From the NCBI GenBank assembly GCA_965197585.1, contig OZ240215.1, forward strand, positions 2,880,001 through 2,944,000: 64,000 nt of DNA, written 5' to 3'. Every line of letters begins with the position of its first letter. The stretch's first letter is position 1. Under the pieces are notes generated by a model. That model had not been told where the DNA came from. It did not search any database and saw only the letters and a program-made list of their open reading frames with translations. Source of the DNA: Dehalococcoidia bacterium. GTDB taxonomy: Bacteria; Chloroflexota; Dehalococcoidia; Plut-88900. Positions 105 through 59,248 of the stretch are shown one piece after another. A program made the translations under genes and the position numbers.

Positions 105-1784
105 ATGAAAATCGTGTCAGTGGCGGCTATGACGCTGCTAGTTGCACTTGTTGGGTGCTCCTCCCCTGTGGAAGTCTCCCCTCCCACCCCTAACACGGTC
201 AGGGCCGCGGAGACGGCGATGGCAGAGGCGCAGCCTACTGCAACGCCCACCGCACCGATTGATGTCAACGCTACGATAGAGGCAGGGGTGGCGGCGACAA
301 TGGTTGCCGTTCCGCTTACGCCAATTCCCGCACCCACGCCGGTTCCAACGCCAGCGCCAACAAGCACACCTGATCCTACAGCTGTGCCTTCTCCGACACC
401 CATACCTACACCTGTGCCTACGCCCACTCCCATACCTACTCCAATCCCTACACCGACTCCGACCCCTATACCAACGCCCGTCGTGCCCCCTACCCCAGCC
501 GACTTAGTTAGACGGGTTGAGGATGGTGTAGTCAGGGTGACTGCCGGGCGCAAAGGGGGGTCAGGATTCATCTTTGATACCGAAGGAAATACTGCCTTTG
601 TGGTCACCGCCCATCATGTTATAGAAGATGAAGATGCAATAGACGTGCTGGTAGAGAACTCCCGTACGTACAAGGCCACCCTTTTGGGCTACGATTCGGA
701 CGAAGACGTAGCCGTAATGTCGATATGCTGCAGTTCCACTTTCCAAGTCCTTTCATGGGACTCCGGGGCTTCCGCCGAGATGGGTGATCAGGTGGTGGCA
801 GTTGGATATCCCCGCGGCTCCTCAACTATGGTCACGGCCACTATCGGCCAAATGAAGAACGATTGGGTCGCTGACGTAGTTGCAAACATTGCCCACAATG
901 CTCCCCTAAATCCGGGAAACAGCGGCGGGCCTCTTTTCTCGACAAAGGGAGAGGTGTTAGGTATCAACACTGCCTCATCAACAAGGACGGAAGGGCTATT
1001 CTACGCGGTCCCATACATAGCCATTGCACACAAAGTCGCCGATTGGAAGTCCCGCTTAGTAGTCACAGGAGAACCTTGGCCAACCCCAACGCCCACACCG
1101 GTACCCACACTCACACCTGTCCCCACCCCTATCCCCGTCTGTCCGTCAGGACCCAGCGAACGTAATAAAACGACATTCTATAGTCTTACGGGAAATTCAA
1201 TGGCTGCACAAATGGCTTGGGATACTGGTGTTTTTATTGCTACTCAGTTGGGCATAAAAGAGAACATATGCGAATATGTTGATGCCATTAATTCGGCGCA
1301 GCTTTTGGCGCTCAAGCAGGCAAGACTATTTAACATCAATGACTTATATACATTCGCTAACATGCTCTCACCACAATTCCATACATCTGAAAATCTGGAT
1401 CACCTACTCTGGCCGTTTAGCAACTCATTACCCACGTACCTTGGCGGCAATCGCCCTAAAGCAGAAGCTTTTCTATACTCAGAGGGAGGGACGAAATCAA
1501 GGGGGTGGATCAGGCTTACACTAGATCATAAGGTGGTGAGTCATCTATCAATATTCAGGATGCGGAAATTTAGCAGTAGAGCAGACTACGCTAGTCGAAT
1601 TGGCCCATCCTTAGATTACATCGTAGCGGGGTACACAACCAGCGCGGAGAGCGTGCCTTATGGTATTCCTGAAGATATTGTAGGCATTGTACTAAATGAG
1701 GAAGAGTCAGTCCTATACATACATGAAGATAATTGGAATGAGGGCAATGTGTTAGAAATAGGCTATGACGCTCTCCTTGATTAA
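105..1784 (+). CDS. Trypsin-like (S1C) serine protease lipoprotein with Pro/Thr-rich linkers and an unknown C-terminal domain
   Basis: Lipobox LVGC; PTPTP repeats; catalytic motifs TAHHV, DVAV and GNSGGP. Confidence 0.88.
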
Positions 1785-1851
1785 GTCCCTTTATTTTTAA
1801 TTGCTTTATGCCTGACAGATTTTCGGGGGAGAACCCCACCTTGTTTCAATT

Positions 1852-1886
1852 GAGACATCAAAAATGCGTTGCATTTTTGATGTCTC
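1852..1886. repeat. Perfect 16-bp inverted repeat (hairpin, possible terminator)
   Basis: GAGACATCAAAAATGC-GTT-GCATTTTTGATGTCTC downstream of the protease gene. Confidence 0.7.
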
Positions 1887-2216
1887 TTTACCAAGTGGAG
1901 AGGGCATAAATTTTCTCCGCACCCAAAAAGAATCCTCTGTCGCTAGAAAGTGATGGATAAAAAAATTTTGGAGGGAGCGAATTTTACCGAACTTTTTGCT
2001 CGCGCAAAGAACTTTTCGCAAAGGCGACAAATTCTGGGCAATAACTGAACTGTGCAAAACTTTTTTTACACGAATTTGACACCCTGCCGATACATGATAG
2101 CCTCGAATGGATAGCCCAGTATGAAGAGGCTTGACATGCCCTTCTGCAGAGAATCCAAAGCCGTGAACCGATGAAGGCTGACCGCAGAGAAAGATGCAAC
2201 GGAACAGGAAAAACAC

Positions 2217-2669
2217 ATGGTTAGGGGAACACCATCGCAACATAGTTGGGAGGAAGAGTATCAAGGAATCATCCTGCACTTGGAAACCGTGCGTCAAAAG
2301 GAAGCTTGGGAATCCCTATCAGCTAGGAAAATGAAGGGAGTTCTCTATGATGCCCAGTGTGCTGTCGAAGAGTCTGAGAAATCAGGCAAGAAGATGGTGA
2401 TCTGTGGTGGCTGTGGTAGAGTGCTTGAACCAGAGTACATGGAGTTGGATCACATAACCCCAAAAGCACAGCGTGGCAAGCACGACATTACCAACCGGAT
2501 TCTGCTTTGTCGGCCATGCAATCTACGCAAAGGCACACACCTTACTCTGATAGGATTACTTAAAGAGAACAAGACGCGGAGATGGTTGCAGGACGAGAAG
2601 CTAGCTAAACTTGCACAAGACAGGGCTTGGGCCATAGCCGACATAGTGCGAGATATAAACTTCCACTAA
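2217..2669 (+). CDS. HNH endonuclease (zinc-binding, McrA-like)
   Basis: CGGC...ELDHITPK...N...LCRPCN motif. Confidence 0.82.
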   Translation: MVRGTPSQHSWEEEYQGIILHLETVRQKEAWESLSARKMKGVLYDAQCAVEESEKSGKKMVICGGCGRVLEPEYMELDHITPKAQRGKHDITNRILLCRPCNLRKGTHLTLIGLLKENKTRRWLQDEKLAKLAQDRAWAIADIVRDINFH

Positions 2670-2742
2670 ACTGTAAGTGTTATTAACAATTTAGCCTACT
2701 CAATGCCCCTAATTCGGTGCGGGAGACGGAGGGACCCCGCCC

Positions 2743-2770
2743 CAGATTCCTCGCGGGGCCTCGGAATAAC
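2743..2770 (-). repeat. Family C palindromic repeat (GTYATTCCGAGGCCCCGCGAGGAATCT)
   Basis: Same motif at 18574, 20032, 20151 and 60826. Confidence 0.75.
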
Positions 2771-2833
2771 AGTAAAGTAATCGGGCGGCTGGATTGTCCA
2801 GCCGCCCGATTGTTCTTACCTTGGAAGGGGAGA

Positions 2834-2876
2834 TTTCACCCTCACCCTAGCCCTCTCCCGTCAAGGGAGAGGGGAC
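2834..2876 (+). repeat. Family A repeat (TTTCACCCTCACCCTAGCCCTCTCCC..GGGAGAGGGG)
   Basis: Near-identical copies at 4061, 12672, 13094 and 63321, plus an inverted copy near 40276. Confidence 0.85.
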
Positions 2877-2886
2877 GGGAAAGAGT

Positions 2887-4020
2887 CTACAGGCCTATGG
2901 CGTCTGCGACTTTTTCTTTGTGGTAGTCGGCGTCTCCGAAGAAGAGCTCGGCCTGCTTGGCCCTTCGGAAGAAGAGCTGCATGTCGTGCTCCTTGGTGAA
3001 GCCGATGCCACCGTGTACCTGGTGTCCCAGCGCTGCAACCCGGCGGCAAGCTTCGCTTACCCAGGCCTTGGCCATCGAGACCTCGCGGTCGCACTCCAGG
3101 CCCTCGCTCATGCGCCAGGCGGCCTGGTAGGTGATGAACCGAGACCCGTCAACGTCGGTGGCCATGTTGGCGCAGTGGTGCTGGACGGCTTGGAAGCTCC
3201 CGATGGGCCGACCAAACTGCACCCTGTTCTTGGCGTAGTCGACGGCTATCTCCAGCACCTGCTGGGAGTTGCCGACCATCTCGGCGCACTTGCCGACGGC
3301 GCCCCTGCGGAGGGCTTGCTCGACTATCGGCCAGCCCTCGTCGACGTCGCCCAAGACGTTGGTCCTCGGCACCCGGACGTCATTGAGCTCGACCTCGCAC
3401 TGCTTGTCGGAGGCGATGGTCTTGAGGACTTCGTAATTGATTCCCGCGCTCTTGGCGTCGACGATGAACGCCGTTATACCCTCGTTCGGGTCGTCGGACT
3501 CCTTGGTGCGGGCAGTGACGATGAGATAGTCGGAGACGTGGGCGTCGGGCACGAAAAGCTTGACGCCGTTGAGGATGAAGTCGTCTCCGTCTGCAACGCC
3601 GGTGACCGAGACGCCGCCCGCGTCCCAGCGGCCGCTGGGCTCGGTGTGGGCCAGTGTCATGATGGCCTGTCCCTCGGAGATCTTGGTCAGGTACTCCTGC
3701 TTCTGCTCCTCGGTTCCGGCCTCGTTAATTGCCATGCCAGCCACGACTACAGTGTAGAAGTAGGGGCCCGGGACCAGGGCCCGGCCAAACTCTTCCACGA
3801 GCACCATCAGGTCCAGGAACTCGAACCCTGCGCCGCCGTACTTTTCGGGGAAGGGCAGGCCCATGAATCCCTGTTCGACGAGCTTCTGCCACAGCTCCGG
3901 CGAGTAGCCTTTTTCATCTTCTTCCATGTCCCGCACCAGGGTCTTGGGACACTCCGCTTCGAGCATCTCCCGTGCGGTCCGCTTGAGCATTTCCTGTTCT
4001 TCGCTAAGGCCCAGGTCCAT
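2887..4020 (-). CDS. Acyl-CoA dehydrogenase, FadE27-like (beta, non-catalytic partner type)
   Basis: ACAD motifs, RVQFGRPIGSFQAVQH and HQVHGGIGFT; lacks the ..FER catalytic motif of the paralogs. Confidence 0.88.
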   Translation of the reverse strand: MDLGLSEEQEMLKRTAREMLEAECPKTLVRDMEEDEKGYSPELWQKLVEQGFMGLPFPEKYGGAGFEFLDLMVLVEEFGRALVPGPYFYTVVVAGMAINEAGTEEQKQEYLTKISEGQAIMTLAHTEPSGRWDAGGVSVTGVADGDDFILNGVKLFVPDAHVSDYLIVTARTKESDDPNEGITAFIVDAKSAGINYEVLKTIASDKQCEVELNDVRVPRTNVLGDVDEGWPIVEQALRRGAVGKCAEMVGNSQQVLEIAVDYAKNRVQFGRPIGSFQAVQHHCANMATDVDGSRFITYQAAWRMSEGLECDREVSMAKAWVSEACRRVAALGHQVHGGIGFTKEHDMQLFFRRAKQAELFFGDADYHKEKVADAIGL

Positions 4021-18921: not shown

Positions 18922-20033
<1,112 letters not shown>

Positions 20034-40385: not shown

Positions 40386-40730
40386 TTACGGGTGCCACCG
40401 CCCATCATTCGTACTGTTGTGTCTCGGATTACGTCCGTATCGTTTGCGAAAAGAGGCTAACTTAGCACTTTCAACGTTTTCGGCGGACTTTTGAGGAATT
40501 GCCCTTGTCTCGACTACTAGCCTGTCCCTCGGCCCTAGCTTACCAGCCTTGGAGTGCTCGACAGCCCGGCGGGATGGATTATTGGTAGTGCCAATATATT
40601 TGGTATAGCCCCTCGAATTCTTTATGGAATACTGGACCTTCTTCCCCGACCTTACCTGCCCTCTTCTTTTAGCAGCGCTTCCACTGCCCCGTCGAGAACT
40701 CCCTCGGTTTCCTCTATATCCCGTTGCCAT
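40386..40730 (-). CDS. Small basic GIY-YIG-like protein
   Basis: QYSI...KYIGTTNNPSRRAVEH...E...PRHN with an Arg/Gly/Ser-rich N-terminus. Confidence 0.62.
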   Translation of the reverse strand: MATGYRGNRGSSRRGSGSAAKRRGQVRSGKKVQYSIKNSRGYTKYIGTTNNPSRRAVEHSKAGKLGPRDRLVVETRAIPQKSAENVESAKLASFRKRYGRNPRHNSTNDGRWHP

Positions 40731-42985: not shown

Positions 42986-43609
42986 CTAGCAGCCGATGGG
43001 TTTCGTGAAGTCGCCCTGGGCGTCGGAGAGTGTGCCGGGGAACAGGCTTGCGCTTAAGGGACCTCGGCGTAGCGGTCTGTACCAGGAGGCCGCATCGTGC
43101 AACTCGAAGCTCCGTCTACGGCTTGGGTCAAAGACCCCTATTTGCTTCCCCAACTTGGTTCGAGCCATCATGATGGGAAGCAGGAGGTCGGAGTCGTTGG
43201 AGATTACCACGGCCATTTCGTAGTCATTTTCGAAGCCGTCCATCAACAGGTAGGATGCGAGATTGACGTCGGAACCCTTCTCCTCGGTGTTGAGTATCTC
43301 GACAGTGCGCGGGCCGGTTTGAGGGTGCTTCGCCAAGGGTCTCCACTTGGTATTCACAAGGAAATATCCGTAGTGAATGCTCAGGTTTGGAACCGTTTGT
43401 AGAGCGCGAAGATAAGTCTGCTGGCGCTGCTGCTGCGTGGGGTCTCCAGGGCGGTTGACTACAAGGGCGGTGAAATAACGTATCCGGCCTATGTCGTGCT
43501 GGGGCAGCAAGAGCGCCGCCAGCTTCCCGACATCCAGCCAACGATATGGCGTACCCCGCAGGGCTCGATAGTAAACATTGAAGCCGTCAATATAGACGTT
43601 GGTGCGGAT
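42986..43609 (-). CDS. NYN (LabA/DUF88, PIN-like) RNase domain protein
   Basis: VYIDGFNVYY, EEKGSDVNLA and ISNDSDL motifs; start uncertain (ATC at 43609 aligns with the usual Met). Confidence 0.88.
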   Translation of the reverse strand: MRTNVYIDGFNVYYRALRGTPYRWLDVGKLAALLLPQHDIGRIRYFTALVVNRPGDPTQQQRQQTYLRALQTVPNLSIHYGYFLVNTKWRPLAKHPQTGPRTVEILNTEEKGSDVNLASYLLMDGFENDYEMAVVISNDSDLLLPIMMARTKLGKQIGVFDPSRRRSFELHDAASWYRPLRRGPLSASLFPGTLSDAQGDFTKPIGC

Positions 43610-43624
43610 GAGTGAATGTGTCCA

Positions 43625-43656
43625 AATAAAAGCTAAGGCTGCCTTTCGGCAGCCTT
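43625..43656 (-). terminator. Intrinsic terminator-like hairpin directly upstream of the NYN gene
   Basis: AAGGCUGCC-GAAA-GGCAGCCUU followed by AGCUUUUAUUU. Confidence 0.7.
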
Positions 43657-43692
43657 GCGCCCCGCCGCCGAAGCGCACGGGGGGAGTACACA
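43625..43692 (-). ncRNA. Candidate small structured leader or antitoxin RNA
   Basis: Lies between a TTGACA promoter and the terminator; CCCCGUGCGC-UUCG-GCGGCGGGG hairpin. Confidence 0.45.
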
Positions 43693-43696
43693 GACA

Positions 43697-43725
43697 ACTT
43701 TATAGCACGTCTAGATGTCTGTCAA
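43697..43725 (-). promoter_or_regulatory. Sigma70-like promoter
   Basis: TTGACA-17 nt-TAAAGT (overlapping TATAAA). Confidence 0.6.
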
Positions 43726-43769
43726 CCTGCAGCGTGACACACAGGCTTGGGTAGACTCGCGTTCTCCTC

Positions 43770-46700
43770 CTACTCTTCGACGGTAGGAATTGGCTTTGCA
43801 GGGGGCTCGGAACTGAGCCGCCCCACCACCCGACCCAATAGCCTCGGAATACTGTCGTTGAAGAGCATGTAGACAATTGGCAGTACCAGCAGCGTCAATG
43901 CCGTGGAACTGGTCAGACCCCCGATAACCACGGTGGCCAGCTCGGCGCTGATCAGGCCGCCGTTGCCCCCGGTTTCCACGGCCAGCGGCAAAAGCGCAAA
44001 ACTGGTGGTTATGGCAGTCATCAGGATAGGCCGCAGCCGCACCCGAGCCCCGGAGATAAGGGCGTCGTAGACTGTCAGGCCCCTGGCACGTTGCTGCTCG
44101 ACAAAGGAGATGAGCACTATCGCGTTGGTAACCACGATGCCGATGAGCAGCAGGACGCCCATCATGGCCGCAAGGCCGAGGGCCCGGTCCGTCACCGTAA
44201 GCGCTACCATCACGCCAACAAGGGCGAGGGGCAGCGTCAGGATGATGACCAACGGGTTCCGCAAGCTCCCTAAAGCCGCCACCATGACGAGGTAAACAAG
44301 GATGATTCCGACGGCCATCGCGGTGAATATGGCCTGGAAGCCTTCTGCAATGTCCGCGAAGATGCCGCCGCTGTTGACGGCGACTCCCGGCGGCAAGTCC
44401 AGCGCCGCAATCCTTTCGTCCACCAGGACGCCCACCGCCTGCGTGTCATCCGAGACGATATCCGCAATGATGCTGGCCGACCGACGTCCGTCCGTGCGGC
44501 TGATCGATACGGGCCCTTCCCGCAATACCGGCTCGGCCAGATCACCGAGGGGAGCCGCTCCGCCCGGTCCGACAATCATCAGAGAACCTAGCTGGTCGAC
44601 GCTGCCGGTGGATCGGGGGTCGCCGGTGAGTACAACGTCCACTGCTTCCCCATCTACATTGATCGATGTCACGCGCTGGCCGATTGTGTACTGGCTTATC
44701 TGAAGCCCGACCTGACGTGTGGTCAGGCCAATGCTGCCCGCCTTTTCCGGGTCCACCTCTATCGCCACTTCAGGCCGAGCCTCCGCCACGTCGCTTTCCA
44801 GGTTTACGATTCCGTCAATGACGCCTATGGAGGCTGCCAGTTCCTCGGTCACCTCGGAAATGTGGTTGTAGTTAGGACCCGTGACGAAGATCTCAACGCC
44901 TCCGGCGGGCGGCCCATCAGCTATCTCGGATATGCGCAGCGTCCGACCCGGCTTCTCGAATTCATCCCGCAGCGTTTCGGCTATGCCTTCCGGAGCGTCT
45001 CCCGAAAGCCGTATGAAGAAACTGGCCTGCTGCAGGCCCATGGGCCCGCCGGCCTCACCGGGACCGGTAAAGTCACCTCCGCCTATGATCACTGTGTACA
45101 CGTCGGACAGTTCGTCTACTCGAGTCTCGATCTCGGTAACGGCTTCCACGGTCTGCTCCACGCTGGAGCCGGGCGGCAGACTCAACTGGATCTGCAAGAA
45201 GCGGTCCCCGTCGCCGCCGAAGAGGTTAACCGGAATGGTGGCCATCAGGCCCAGGCTCCCGACGGTGATGACAGTTGCAGCAAGTAACGTCACCACACGA
45301 TGTCCCAGCGCCCACTTCAGGACGGTGAGGTATGTACGTTGCAGCCAGGTATCCTGTTGCGGCAGGTCTCCCTCGTCGCCTGCGCCCTCGGGCAGGTCGC
45401 CGGGGCGCAGGAGGAACGCTCCCAGGACTGGCACTGCGGTCAGCGCAACCAGCAGGGAGGCAATCAGCGCGAAGCTCACCGTCAGGGCGAAGGGCAGGAA
45501 GAAGGAGCCGACCAGCCCTTGAATGAAGGCCAGAGGCACAAAGACTACAACCGTGGTCATTGTCGAAGCGAAGATCGCAGGGCCGACCTCCCTCGTAGCC
45601 TCCAGCGCTGCCCGCCATCGCTCACGACCCCCCTGTATGTGACGATAAACGTTCTCCAGCACCACGATGGAGTCGTCCACGACCCGGCCCACGGAGATGG
45701 CCAGGCCTCCCAGCGTCATGAAGTTCAGGGTCATGTCCTGCCAGTTCATCAGCAGGATGCCGGTGAACACGCTCAGGGGTATCGACAGACCGATGACAAC
45801 GGTGGGGCGCAGCGTGTTGAAAAACCCACGCACGACCGTGGGGCGGATGGTCAACATGAAGGCAAAGACAACCGACACCGCAAATAGGAACCCGAACGTG
45901 CCCTCGCGGACAAGGTTGTCTATCTGGCCCTGGATTTCGGGGCCCTGGTCGGTCACTACTATTACGTCGACGTCGTCGGAGATGCCGTCCAGGTTGGCAA
46001 TGACATCGTTGACGGCGTTGGTGACGTCAACGGTGTTGGCTTCCGGTTCTTTTGACACGCTGACCGAGAGACCCGGTTTGCCGTTGGTTCGGGAGATGCT
46101 GGATGTCCGACCCGAGCCGAATGTAACGTTCGCCACGTCCGAGAGCCGCACCGGTCCTTCCTCGTTCACACCCACGACCAGGTTCCGCAAGTCGTCCACC
46201 GACTCCAGGGAGTGGGTGGTCTTTGCTATCACGGCCTGAGTCCCATCGAAGAGCAGACCGGCGGGGAGGGTCACGTTGTTGTCGCGAAGGGCGGAAGAGA
46301 CCTGGAAGAGGGATATGCCGTTGGCCGACATCTTTTCAAGGTCCGCAGTGACAATGAAGTTGCGGTCAACGTCCCCGACCAGCTGGACCTGCGTGACCCC
46401 CTCAATGTCCTCGATCTCCGGGATGATCAGGTCTTGCACCAGCGCCTGCACCTCGACGAGCGGCCTGTCAGACACCACGCCGAACTGGATCACGGGAAAG
46501 GCGTCAGGATCGAAGCGGCCCACGGTGGGGTCATCCACGGCGGCCGGGAAGTTCACGCCATTGAGGGCATTCTCAATAAACGCTTCGGCTGCGGCCATAT
46601 CCGTGCCGTATTTGAATGTAGCAAAGACCGCGGTGTTGCCTTCGGAGGACGTGGATTGAACGGTCTCCAGTCCATCGGCGCCCGAGATAGCCCGCTCAAT

Positions 46701-58930: not shown

Positions 58931-59248
58931 GCACACGGTTCACAAACCATGGCTAGGGACCCCGTTTATCTTTAAAGTGCCCTACTGTTAGCAAGTTGCC
59001 CTGTGTTGGAGTCCGGAATCTTACTTCCCTGAAACTACACAGGACACGACGCTTTCGGCAGATCTGTCTAGTGTCACGGCCCCGACCCTCCGCTCACTAT
59101 CCATCAAACTATGTATTGCCCTACTCAAGAAAAGAGCCCACGCGGCCCCACCCCCCACGCGCCCGAGGCCGCGCTGCACGAAATCATCGCAAAGCGCGGC
59201 CTTGGCATACTGTGAGGGCGAGGCTAGGTTGTTGGAGTCCTTCGCCCC

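Follow-up and report, generated by a model that had tools for sequence, protein, structure and literature searches.

A conserved small RNA gene accompanies HEC-09 family NYN nuclease genes and may form with them a type III-like toxin-antitoxin module

Introduction

Type III toxin-antitoxin systems (ToxIN, CptIN and TenpIN, as well as AbiQ-antiQ) are built from a short RNA gene, an intrinsic terminator and then an endoribonuclease gene. Their antitoxin is encoded as a series of tandem direct repeats, and the toxin processes the RNA made from it. Here we analyse a locus of comparable layout in a 64,000-nt stretch of a Dehalococcoidia bacterium genome (contig OZ240215.1, positions 2,880,001 to 2,944,000 of the forward strand), called the window below, whose positions serve as coordinates unless another record or locus is named. 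On its minus strand, a promoter, a small structured RNA (sRNA) gene with its own terminator and the gene of an NYN-domain nuclease follow one another. An earlier note, made from the DNA alone, had read this order as a type III-like system with a possible role in phage defence.

The nuclease belongs to the HEC-09 family, which Payne et al. (bioRxiv 10.1101/2024.01.29.577857) present as an Hma-embedded candidate defence gene encoding a MARF1-like NYN protein with three conserved aspartates. The preprint handles HEC-09 as a single protein gene, and the terms "ncRNA" and "non-coding" are absent from its main text. Bacterial PF01936 proteins are listed as "function unknown" by Matelska et al. 2017 (PMC5499597). 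A literature search that combined NYN with type III toxin-antitoxin, RNA antitoxin and structured noncoding RNA returned no description of an RNA partner for an NYN protein. The sRNA family and its coupling to HEC-09 appear to be undescribed in the searched literature and in Rfam 15.

We lean, with somewhat more confidence than doubt, towards the reading that the sRNA and the NYN endoribonuclease form a two-gene module that works like a type III toxin-antitoxin or abortive-infection system. The basis for this reading is the architecture of the locus, the linkage of the two genes, their mobile and defence context, and a repeat array found in one branch of the family.

Results

Architecture of the sRNA-NYN locus

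The elements listed in the earlier note, namely a consensus promoter, a hairpin with a UUCG loop, a GAAA-capped 9-bp stem with a U tract and an NYN gene, were all recovered at their places on the minus strand. The sRNA gene (43624-43687) is about 60 nt long and comprises a C-rich 5' tail, two hairpins termed H1 and H2, of which H2 is the putative terminator, and a U tract; its 5' end would lie at about A43687 and its 3' end at about 43624, as placed from the DNA. The sigma-70-like promoter (43725-43697) found by a promoter scan has a perfect -35 hexamer, TTGACA (43720-43725), and a -10 region, TATAAAGT (43697-43704), that can be read either as TATAAA (43704-43699, 15-nt spacer) or as TAAAGT (43702-43697, 17-nt spacer). 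The TTGACA and TAAAGT pair has 10 of 12 consensus matches.

In the minimum-free-energy fold, H1 (43660-43682) has a 9-bp stem interrupted by a single bulged G, and its UUCG loop lies at 43672-43669. H2 (43632-43658), identified by a terminator scan, is an intrinsic-terminator-like hairpin capped by a GAAA loop, and its 11-bp stem has a bulged A close to the base. Its core comprises 9 bp, AAGGCUGCC-GAAA-GGCAGCCUU (43656-43635), which two G-C pairs across the bulged A extend to 43658-43632. The U-rich tail 3' of H2, UUUUAUUU, ends at about 43624, and the NYN gene (42986-43609, 207 codons and a TAG stop) starts about 15 nt past this U tract, with an ATC codon (43607-43609) as its proposed near-cognate start. 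The 101-nt stretch with the sRNA has a fold z-score of -3.1, and none of 200 shuffles was equally stable.

Conservation and covariation of the sRNA

The search for related loci yielded 602 stretches, of which 581 were confirmed and 80 were kept as loci; the window and these 80 loci are the 81 sources referred to below. A two-hairpin element with clear compensatory changes was observed upstream of NYN in most of the 80 loci. A seed alignment of 53 copies (A2) was made with MAFFT only, a 54th copy (L022) being left out for a long insert in H1. RNAalifold on A2 gave 12 to 14 double changes for the H2 pairs and no broken pair. A covariance model with a 20-pair structure (R1) was built on this seed; it matches the window at 43622-43686 with 72.8 bits, the window being part of the seed. 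R1 matches adjoin NYN in 81 of 81 sources, 79 of them at E < 1e-9 and the other two at 3e-8 (L059) and 1e-6 (L022), and all 28 loci outside the seed are matched as well (E 1e-22 to 1e-6).

The 82 R1 matches, 78 of them distinct, were aligned to the model (A4), and the following figures are hence biased toward it. In A4, 94.3% of cells are paired and 18 of the 20 pairs have changes on both sides, which supports the conservation of the upstream structure that the earlier note had asked about. Compensatory cells number 199; shuffles gave 49 +/- 5.5, none of 500 reaching the observed count, and slid-partner controls gave 17 to 43. Compensatory changes occur at 8 of the 9 pairs of H1 and at 10 of the 11 pairs of H2, where 98.6% of cells are paired. 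Three parts are conserved in sequence: the 5' tail, A(U/C)CCCCCC; the closure of the loop, C(UUCG)G; and the H2 base, GCGAGG...CCUC followed by a bulged U or A and by GC. A model of H1 only (R2), made from 68 of 74 distinct copies with six length variants left out, matches the window at 43655-43686 (E 3e-7, again with the window in the seed). The sRNA is thus structured and conserved beyond chance, and its conservation is the chief evidence for it.

Rfam 15 gave no match at the sRNA, either in the window (E <= 10) or in 10 diverse loci (E <= 1), and no RNA is annotated by RefSeq at the sRNA copy of an E. coli plasmid described below. A weak Rfam match to RSV_PBS (E 0.21) inside the NYN open reading frame (ORF) at 43145-43205 (minus strand), and weak R1 matches at 59150-59216 (plus strand, 16.9 bits, E 0.02) and 19151-19223 (plus strand, E 0.19), were taken as chance.

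Linkage of the sRNA to NYN in two gene orders

The sRNA lies upstream of NYN on the same strand in 66 of the 81 sources (tandem loci). In the 15 others it is found only downstream of NYN, on the opposite strand (convergent loci), and its 3' end falls between -6 and +17 nt relative to the NYN stop codon. The convergent loci are mostly from Actinomycetota, plus one Terriglobales locus and one unclassified locus. The same order is present on a Paenarthrobacter plasmid (R1 E 4e-12) and in the Mycobacterium phage prophiGD43A-1, where NYN is gene 6 and the sRNA occupies 3965-3894 (E 2e-17). An NYN gene without the sRNA occurs in none of the 81 sources.

Promoters were scored by a rule that asks for a -35 element with at least 5 of 6 matches, a spacer of 15-19 nt, and TAnnnT whose last base is 6-11 nt upstream of the conserved 5' end, A(U/C)CCCC. 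The rule is satisfied in 35 of 80 distinct regions upstream of sRNA copies and in 0 of 80 controls taken 300 nt further away; tandem copies account for 29 (of 64) and convergent copies for 6 (of 16). Since convergent copies have their own promoter, the sRNA is a separate gene and not a 5' leader, and its linkage to NYN is strict in either gene order.

These data bear on the alternative that the element acts in cis as a 5' leader of the NYN mRNA, either riboswitch-like or as a protein-dependent attenuator with a switchable H2. In tandem loci NYN is indeed separated from the promoter by H2, which is bound to attenuate its transcription. Yet in 15 loci, one plasmid and one prophage the element is downstream, on the opposite strand and with its own promoter; no Rfam riboswitch match was obtained; and two candidate alternative pairings lack covariation support. 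The first, the UGCGC/GCGCA pairing put forward in the earlier note, did not hold up, with 314 of 500 shuffles scoring as high. The second, an antiterminator pairing between the 3' arm of H1 and the 5' arm of H2, is 75% paired, yet 138 of 500 shuffles score as high, and it was rejected. The convergent arrangement largely refutes a cis-acting leader, which we regard as very unlikely.

The two gene orders also speak to a third possibility, that the sRNA base-pairs with the NYN mRNA, in a type I-like or antisense control of translation or stability, rather than binding the protein. In the 15 convergent loci the 3' half of the sRNA abuts or overlaps the 3' end of NYN, so that run-on NYN transcripts would be complementary to it, and the G-rich ribosome-binding sites located just past the U tract offer the C-rich tail a possible pairing partner. 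The antisense relation is absent from the 66 tandem sources because both genes are there on the same strand, no complementarity is conserved across both arrangements, and most of the C-run is paired within H1. Control by pairing with the NYN mRNA is, in our estimate, quite unlikely.

Second sRNA copies are present in four loci. One (L070, 3738-3804, minus strand) has an sRNA upstream of NYN and another, convergent, downstream; two others have two copies in tandem (L079, 2835-2901, plus strand; L024, 2984-3041, plus strand), back-to-back in L024. In L072, a direct repeat of about 230 nt (914-1140 and 2784-3057) contains the promoter, the sRNA and the first six NYN codons, and the repeats flank about 1.9 kb with three or four unrelated ORFs; this could reflect an insertion into, or recombination at, the module. 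In L020 (1801-2410) NYN is frameshifted once near codon 17 next to an intact sRNA (76.9 bits), which is either toxin-first decay or an assembly error.

An NYN tree was computed from the 63 rows of a protein alignment (A5), from which the near-duplicates L001 and L006 were omitted. The convergent loci fall into three groups on this tree, which is compatible with a single origin. Phyla are intermixed on it, which argues for horizontal transfer.

Fold and family of the NYN protein

The protein matches the Pfam family NYN (PF01936) with E 1e-7 and 33 bits, against a gathering cut-off of 24.2. At E <= 0.001, at least 7,886 relatives were found among 8,000 candidates scored. Residues D7, D113, D138 and D140 are invariant in 63 sequences, and the active site is therefore under selection. 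AlphaFold2 on A5 gave a model with a pLDDT of 95.3 and a pTM of 0.89. The nearest solved folds according to Foldseek are VPA0982 (2qip, E 3e-8), the NYN domains of MARF1 (5yaa, 6fdl) and the PIN domain of Regnase; a sequence search of the PDB gave no significant match, and no NCBIfam family was found for the protein. NYN is thus predicted, from the model, to be an endoribonuclease with an active nuclease fold and intact catalytic aspartates. It has the fold and the acidic active site in common with LabA/MARF1-type NYN proteins (PF01936; 2qip, 5yaa, 6fdl), at 11-16% identity, and the subfamily of the window is set apart by about 50 additional residues conserved at the C-terminus and by an RNA gene of its own.

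The HEC-09 profile of PADLOC (PDLC04163) matches over the full length (E 7e-37, residues 1-199 against positions 3-194 of 203) and also matches 11 of 11 plasmid or prophage homologues tested. The window protein is therefore of the same family as HEC-09; the copy in the window is outside any Hma system, and the linked sRNA gene is new here.

Among the plasmid matches H39, H41, H61 and H63 and at L087 (1471-2433), some family members are labelled "6-hydroxy-3-succinoylpyridine 3-monooxygenase (nicB/HspA)" and one is labelled "antitoxin Xre/MbcA/ParS toxin-binding domain" protein. The first of these labels is probably a name transferred from a fused P. putida protein, which PMC5499597 discusses.

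Translation start of NYN

The only in-frame canonical start upstream of the NYN core in the window is GTG 43678, located inside H1; position 1 of the Pfam profile falls on residue 25 of the ORF read from this codon. It could be argued that no functional RNA exists, in which case H2 would merely terminate the upstream AcrB-family gene and the remaining sequence would encode the N-terminus of a longer NYN protein begun at GTG 43678. From that codon on there is indeed no stop in frame, gene callers yield versions of 229-237 aa in relatives, and H2 lies about 115 nt past the AcrB-family stop codon. The upstream gene differs at nearly all loci, however, and the base-pair covariation is of the RNA type.

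A start-codon census of the window and the 80 loci (65 sources by script, 16 by eye) examined the position five codons before the Y(I/V)D(G/A) motif. This position is ATG, GTG or TTG in most of the 81 sources and ATC, ATT or ATA in 12. ATC or ATT is found in the window, L001 and L003-L010, all from Dehalococcoidia or Chloroflexota; ATT also occurs in L048 and ATA in L056. In the window the codon is ATC (43609-43607), as the earlier note had observed. CTG is present in L045, L038, L047 and L067, of which L038 and L047 also have canonical starts further upstream, and no evident start codon was found in L002 and L063.

In L003, L005, L006, L009 and L048, an in-frame stop is located 8-9 codons upstream with no canonical start in between, and in L004 and L007 there is no canonical start in 33-36 open codons. 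A G-rich stretch is located 9-14 nt upstream of the AUC or AUU codon. Because of these upstream stops and absent canonical starts in relatives, only initiation at AUC or AUU gives a consistent reading of the Dehalococcoidia/Chloroflexota clade, as deduced from the codons.

The N-terminal region was further compared in an alignment (A1) of the window protein with 38 of 120 listed relatives, picked for length spread. The NYN core is highly conserved, whereas the predicted N-termini are patchy, with truncations, short extensions and two longer "peptides". The latter come from one and the same stretch of DNA in two different frames, and a conserved N-terminal peptide was rejected on account of this reading in two frames and of the upstream stops or missing starts. 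On the same observations, GTG 43678, which the earlier note had kept as a possible true start, is not the start of the family as judged from its codons, and a longer protein in place of an RNA is extremely unlikely.

The ATC/ATT start would account for two kinds of annotation. The database protein of the window (P0008, 42986-43510, minus strand; 174 aa) begins at an internal start and lacks the first catalytic aspartate, and relatives are annotated with N-terminal extensions that read through the sRNA gene. Gene callers thus mis-annotate NYN across one clade, in which the start is AUC or AUU and an open frame runs through the sRNA gene. A known example of non-AUG initiation that keeps protein output low is infC, which starts at AUU. 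By analogy, the AUC/AUU codon at the conserved start position may lower NYN output; here it is limited to one Dehalococcoidia clade of a mobile nuclease gene and two scattered loci.

A repeat array and other RNA classes on plasmids

The mobilizable E. coli plasmid NZ_CP122630.1 (4,568 bp; L082) encodes an NYN protein 36% identical to that of the window, with a TTG start near 1756. Upstream of it come, in this order, a site resembling a promoter, an array of about four tandem units, a terminator hairpin of 9 bp with a U8 tract, and GGAG. The array (1589-1710) was resolved by TRF as period 33 with 2.6 copies and 96% match, or as period 29 with 3.3 copies, and each unit consists of a C-rich tail and a hairpin with H1-like arms. 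This stretch is present in 17 plasmid records; a 274-aa coding sequence annotated through it is probably an artefact. R2 with default filters gave no match on the array. With filters off, the best match of the whole plasmid is unit 2 (12.3 bits, E 0.043), and units 3, 4 and 1 follow at E 0.16, 4.1 and 6.1.

R1 and R2 gave no match at six more distant HEC-09 plasmid loci (L086-L091), from Xanthomonas, P. syringae, M. avium, E. coli (5 kb) and two Klebsiella hosts. Five of them (L086, L087, L089, L090 and L091) have different structured upstream regions with a strong terminator that ends 19-25 nt before the NYN start, and a terminator ending 19-30 nt before this start is found in 6 of 8 plasmid loci. 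Given these terminators at distant loci, the layout of promoter, structured RNA, terminator and NYN appears to be general across the family, with several RNA sequence classes. L090 and L091 have the element GCGATTAAGTT in common, in two copies in L090. The terminator is absent from L088, which has a long inverted repeat of ACGTAAAG-like units instead.

Genomic neighbourhood and mobile elements

When the ORFs of 80 aa or more in the 81 regions were clustered all against all, no conserved second protein gene emerged. NYN is the only family present in 81 of 81 regions, and the other large clusters are overlapping NYN frames. The next real family is a tyrosine integrase, at five loci (L036, L018, L051, L067 and L078); in L036, a tRNA gene (587-659) is beside the integrase (1439-3001). 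An integrase (181-1449) is also beside the module in the Mycobacterium prophage (L085), where the NYN and sRNA genes are located between it and the immunity repressor. The adjoining integrases indicate that the module is cargo of integrative elements.

A tblastn search found NYN homologues in 441 plasmid records, including enterobacterial plasmids of 3.4-4.6 kb, and in 3 phage records. R1 also matches 5' of NYN on two plasmids, one from Leptospira interrogans (E 4e-11) and the other the 3,461-bp E. coli plasmid NZ_CP091696.1 (L081; E 5e-8). The latter is ColE1-like (RNAI, 93.8 bits) and has a lone "antitoxin VbhA family" gene with no annotated toxin (features 1113-1214, minus strand, and 1967-2167, plus strand).

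In the window, the gene directly upstream of the locus encodes an AcrB-family protein (46901-43770, minus strand; PF00873, E 3e-208), and the flanks are in common only with L001 and L004. A 114-aa ORF (40386-40730, minus strand) has a GIY-YIG nuclease match below threshold (E 5e-4, 20.8 bits against a cut-off of 22.6) and is flanked by a TrmO/FmdE-like gene and a MobA-like gene.

Discussion

The locus resembles type III systems in the order of promoter, short structured RNA, intrinsic terminator and nuclease gene (66 of 81 sources), in its carriage by plasmids and prophages and in having no protein antitoxin. It differs from them in that the sRNA of the window and the 80 loci is a single unit with its own promoter and terminator that needs no processing, a tandem-repeat RNA array being found only in the branch of the 4.6-kb E. 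coli plasmid, and in that a convergent gene order exists; binding of the RNA to the protein and its inhibition are here a proposal. The nuclease also differs from ToxN, CptN and TenpN: its fold is NYN/PIN-like, Pfam matched only PF01936, and Foldseek returned only NYN/PIN proteins. Because the fold differs and the window has no repeats, the module is not a ToxIN, CptIN or TenpIN system.

The type III-like reading of the earlier note therefore stands in part. The layout across phyla, the independent RNA gene, the lack of a protein partner, the presence of HEC-09 on plasmids, in prophage and on integrase-flanked elements, and the array of one branch all speak for it, whereas the single RNA unit of the window and the fold set it apart, so that the module may work like type III without being a member of the known types.

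We propose the following mechanism. A strong constitutive promoter would produce the RNA of about 60 nt, with H2 as its own intrinsic terminator. The gap of about 15 nt after the U tract is too short for a separate promoter, so NYN in the window would be expressed only by read-through of H2, and it would be translated from a weak AUC codon; together these would leave the RNA in large excess over the protein. The sRNA would bind NYN in trans and keep it inactive. If the supply of RNA drops, because a phage shuts off transcription or because the plasmid or element is lost, unbound NYN would cut cellular or phage RNA, with growth arrest, abortive infection or post-segregational killing as the outcome. 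The binding of RNA to protein, the inhibition, the toxicity and the trigger are what we infer from the evidence set out above.

Several points weigh against this mechanism. The window sRNA is a single unit with no repeats (no tandem repeat was found in 43400-43900), and to our knowledge all described type III antitoxins are repeated. The plasmid array units match H1 weakly, none of them significantly when taken singly, so that their homology to H1 is no more than suggestive. The decay patterns that support a toxin and its antidote are few, namely the frameshifted NYN of L020, which may be an assembly error, and the extra sRNA copies in four loci. The neighbours of the module in the window are of housekeeping type (an AcrB-family pump and a sorbosone-dehydrogenase-like gene) and form no defence island. 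Finally, the preprint (bioRxiv 10.1101/2024.01.29.577857) reports that a HEC-09 representative, on a clone that included its native promoter region, gave no protection against any coliphage in the test. The phage-defence idea of the earlier note has thus gained a published candidate defence gene, HEC-09, as its protein, and has met a representative that conferred no defence in the experiments of Payne et al.

Strict co-occurrence would be equally expected if the sRNA were a required partner of the nuclease, such as a cofactor, scaffold, guide or sensor, and not its inhibitor. A cofactor or guide is the main rival to the antitoxin, and the co-occurrence data are unable to separate the two, the 81 of 81 co-occurrence and both gene orders fitting either equally well. 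A possible version has the C-rich 5' tail bind G-rich sequences of Shine-Dalgarno type and so steer NYN to its targets. Sequence conservation of the 5' tail A(U/C)CCCCCC and of the H2 base exceeds the needs of pairing, which favours a partner, as does the lack of defence by the HEC-09 representative in a foreign host in the same preprint. The terminator between the genes and the weak starts point rather to excess RNA, as is typical of the stoichiometry of antidote and toxin and needless for a 1:1 ribonucleoprotein; moreover, the tail leaves just 3-5 bases unpaired, very few for a guide, and the repeat array of the L082 type has a precedent in type III antitoxins. A required partner is possible, though we hold it to be doubtful. 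A more specific proposal is that the sRNA is the specificity or sensing subunit of a mobile two-part ribonucleoprotein nuclease, whose C-rich 5' end recognises G-rich ribosome-binding sites or the 5' ends of invader RNA and directs or licenses cleavage by NYN. This is unlikely; if true, it would be a minimal RNA-dependent RNase defence unrelated to CRISPR, Argonaute and type III toxin-antitoxin systems.

The sRNA represents a widespread structured RNA family with strong covariation that is new to Rfam 15 and to the RefSeq annotation of the E. coli plasmid copy. With it, HEC-09 goes from a "single-gene" candidate without a phenotype to a two-component RNA-protein module, which gives reason to test it again with and without the sRNA, and since E. 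coli plasmids of 3.4-4.6 kb carry copies, the hypothesis can be tested directly in a laboratory strain. If the sRNA is an antitoxin, type III systems would come to include nucleases of the PIN-like/NYN superfamily and an RNA that is not repeated and terminates itself, and their known range would reach at least a dozen phyla, enteric plasmids, Leptospira plasmids and a mycobacterial prophage.

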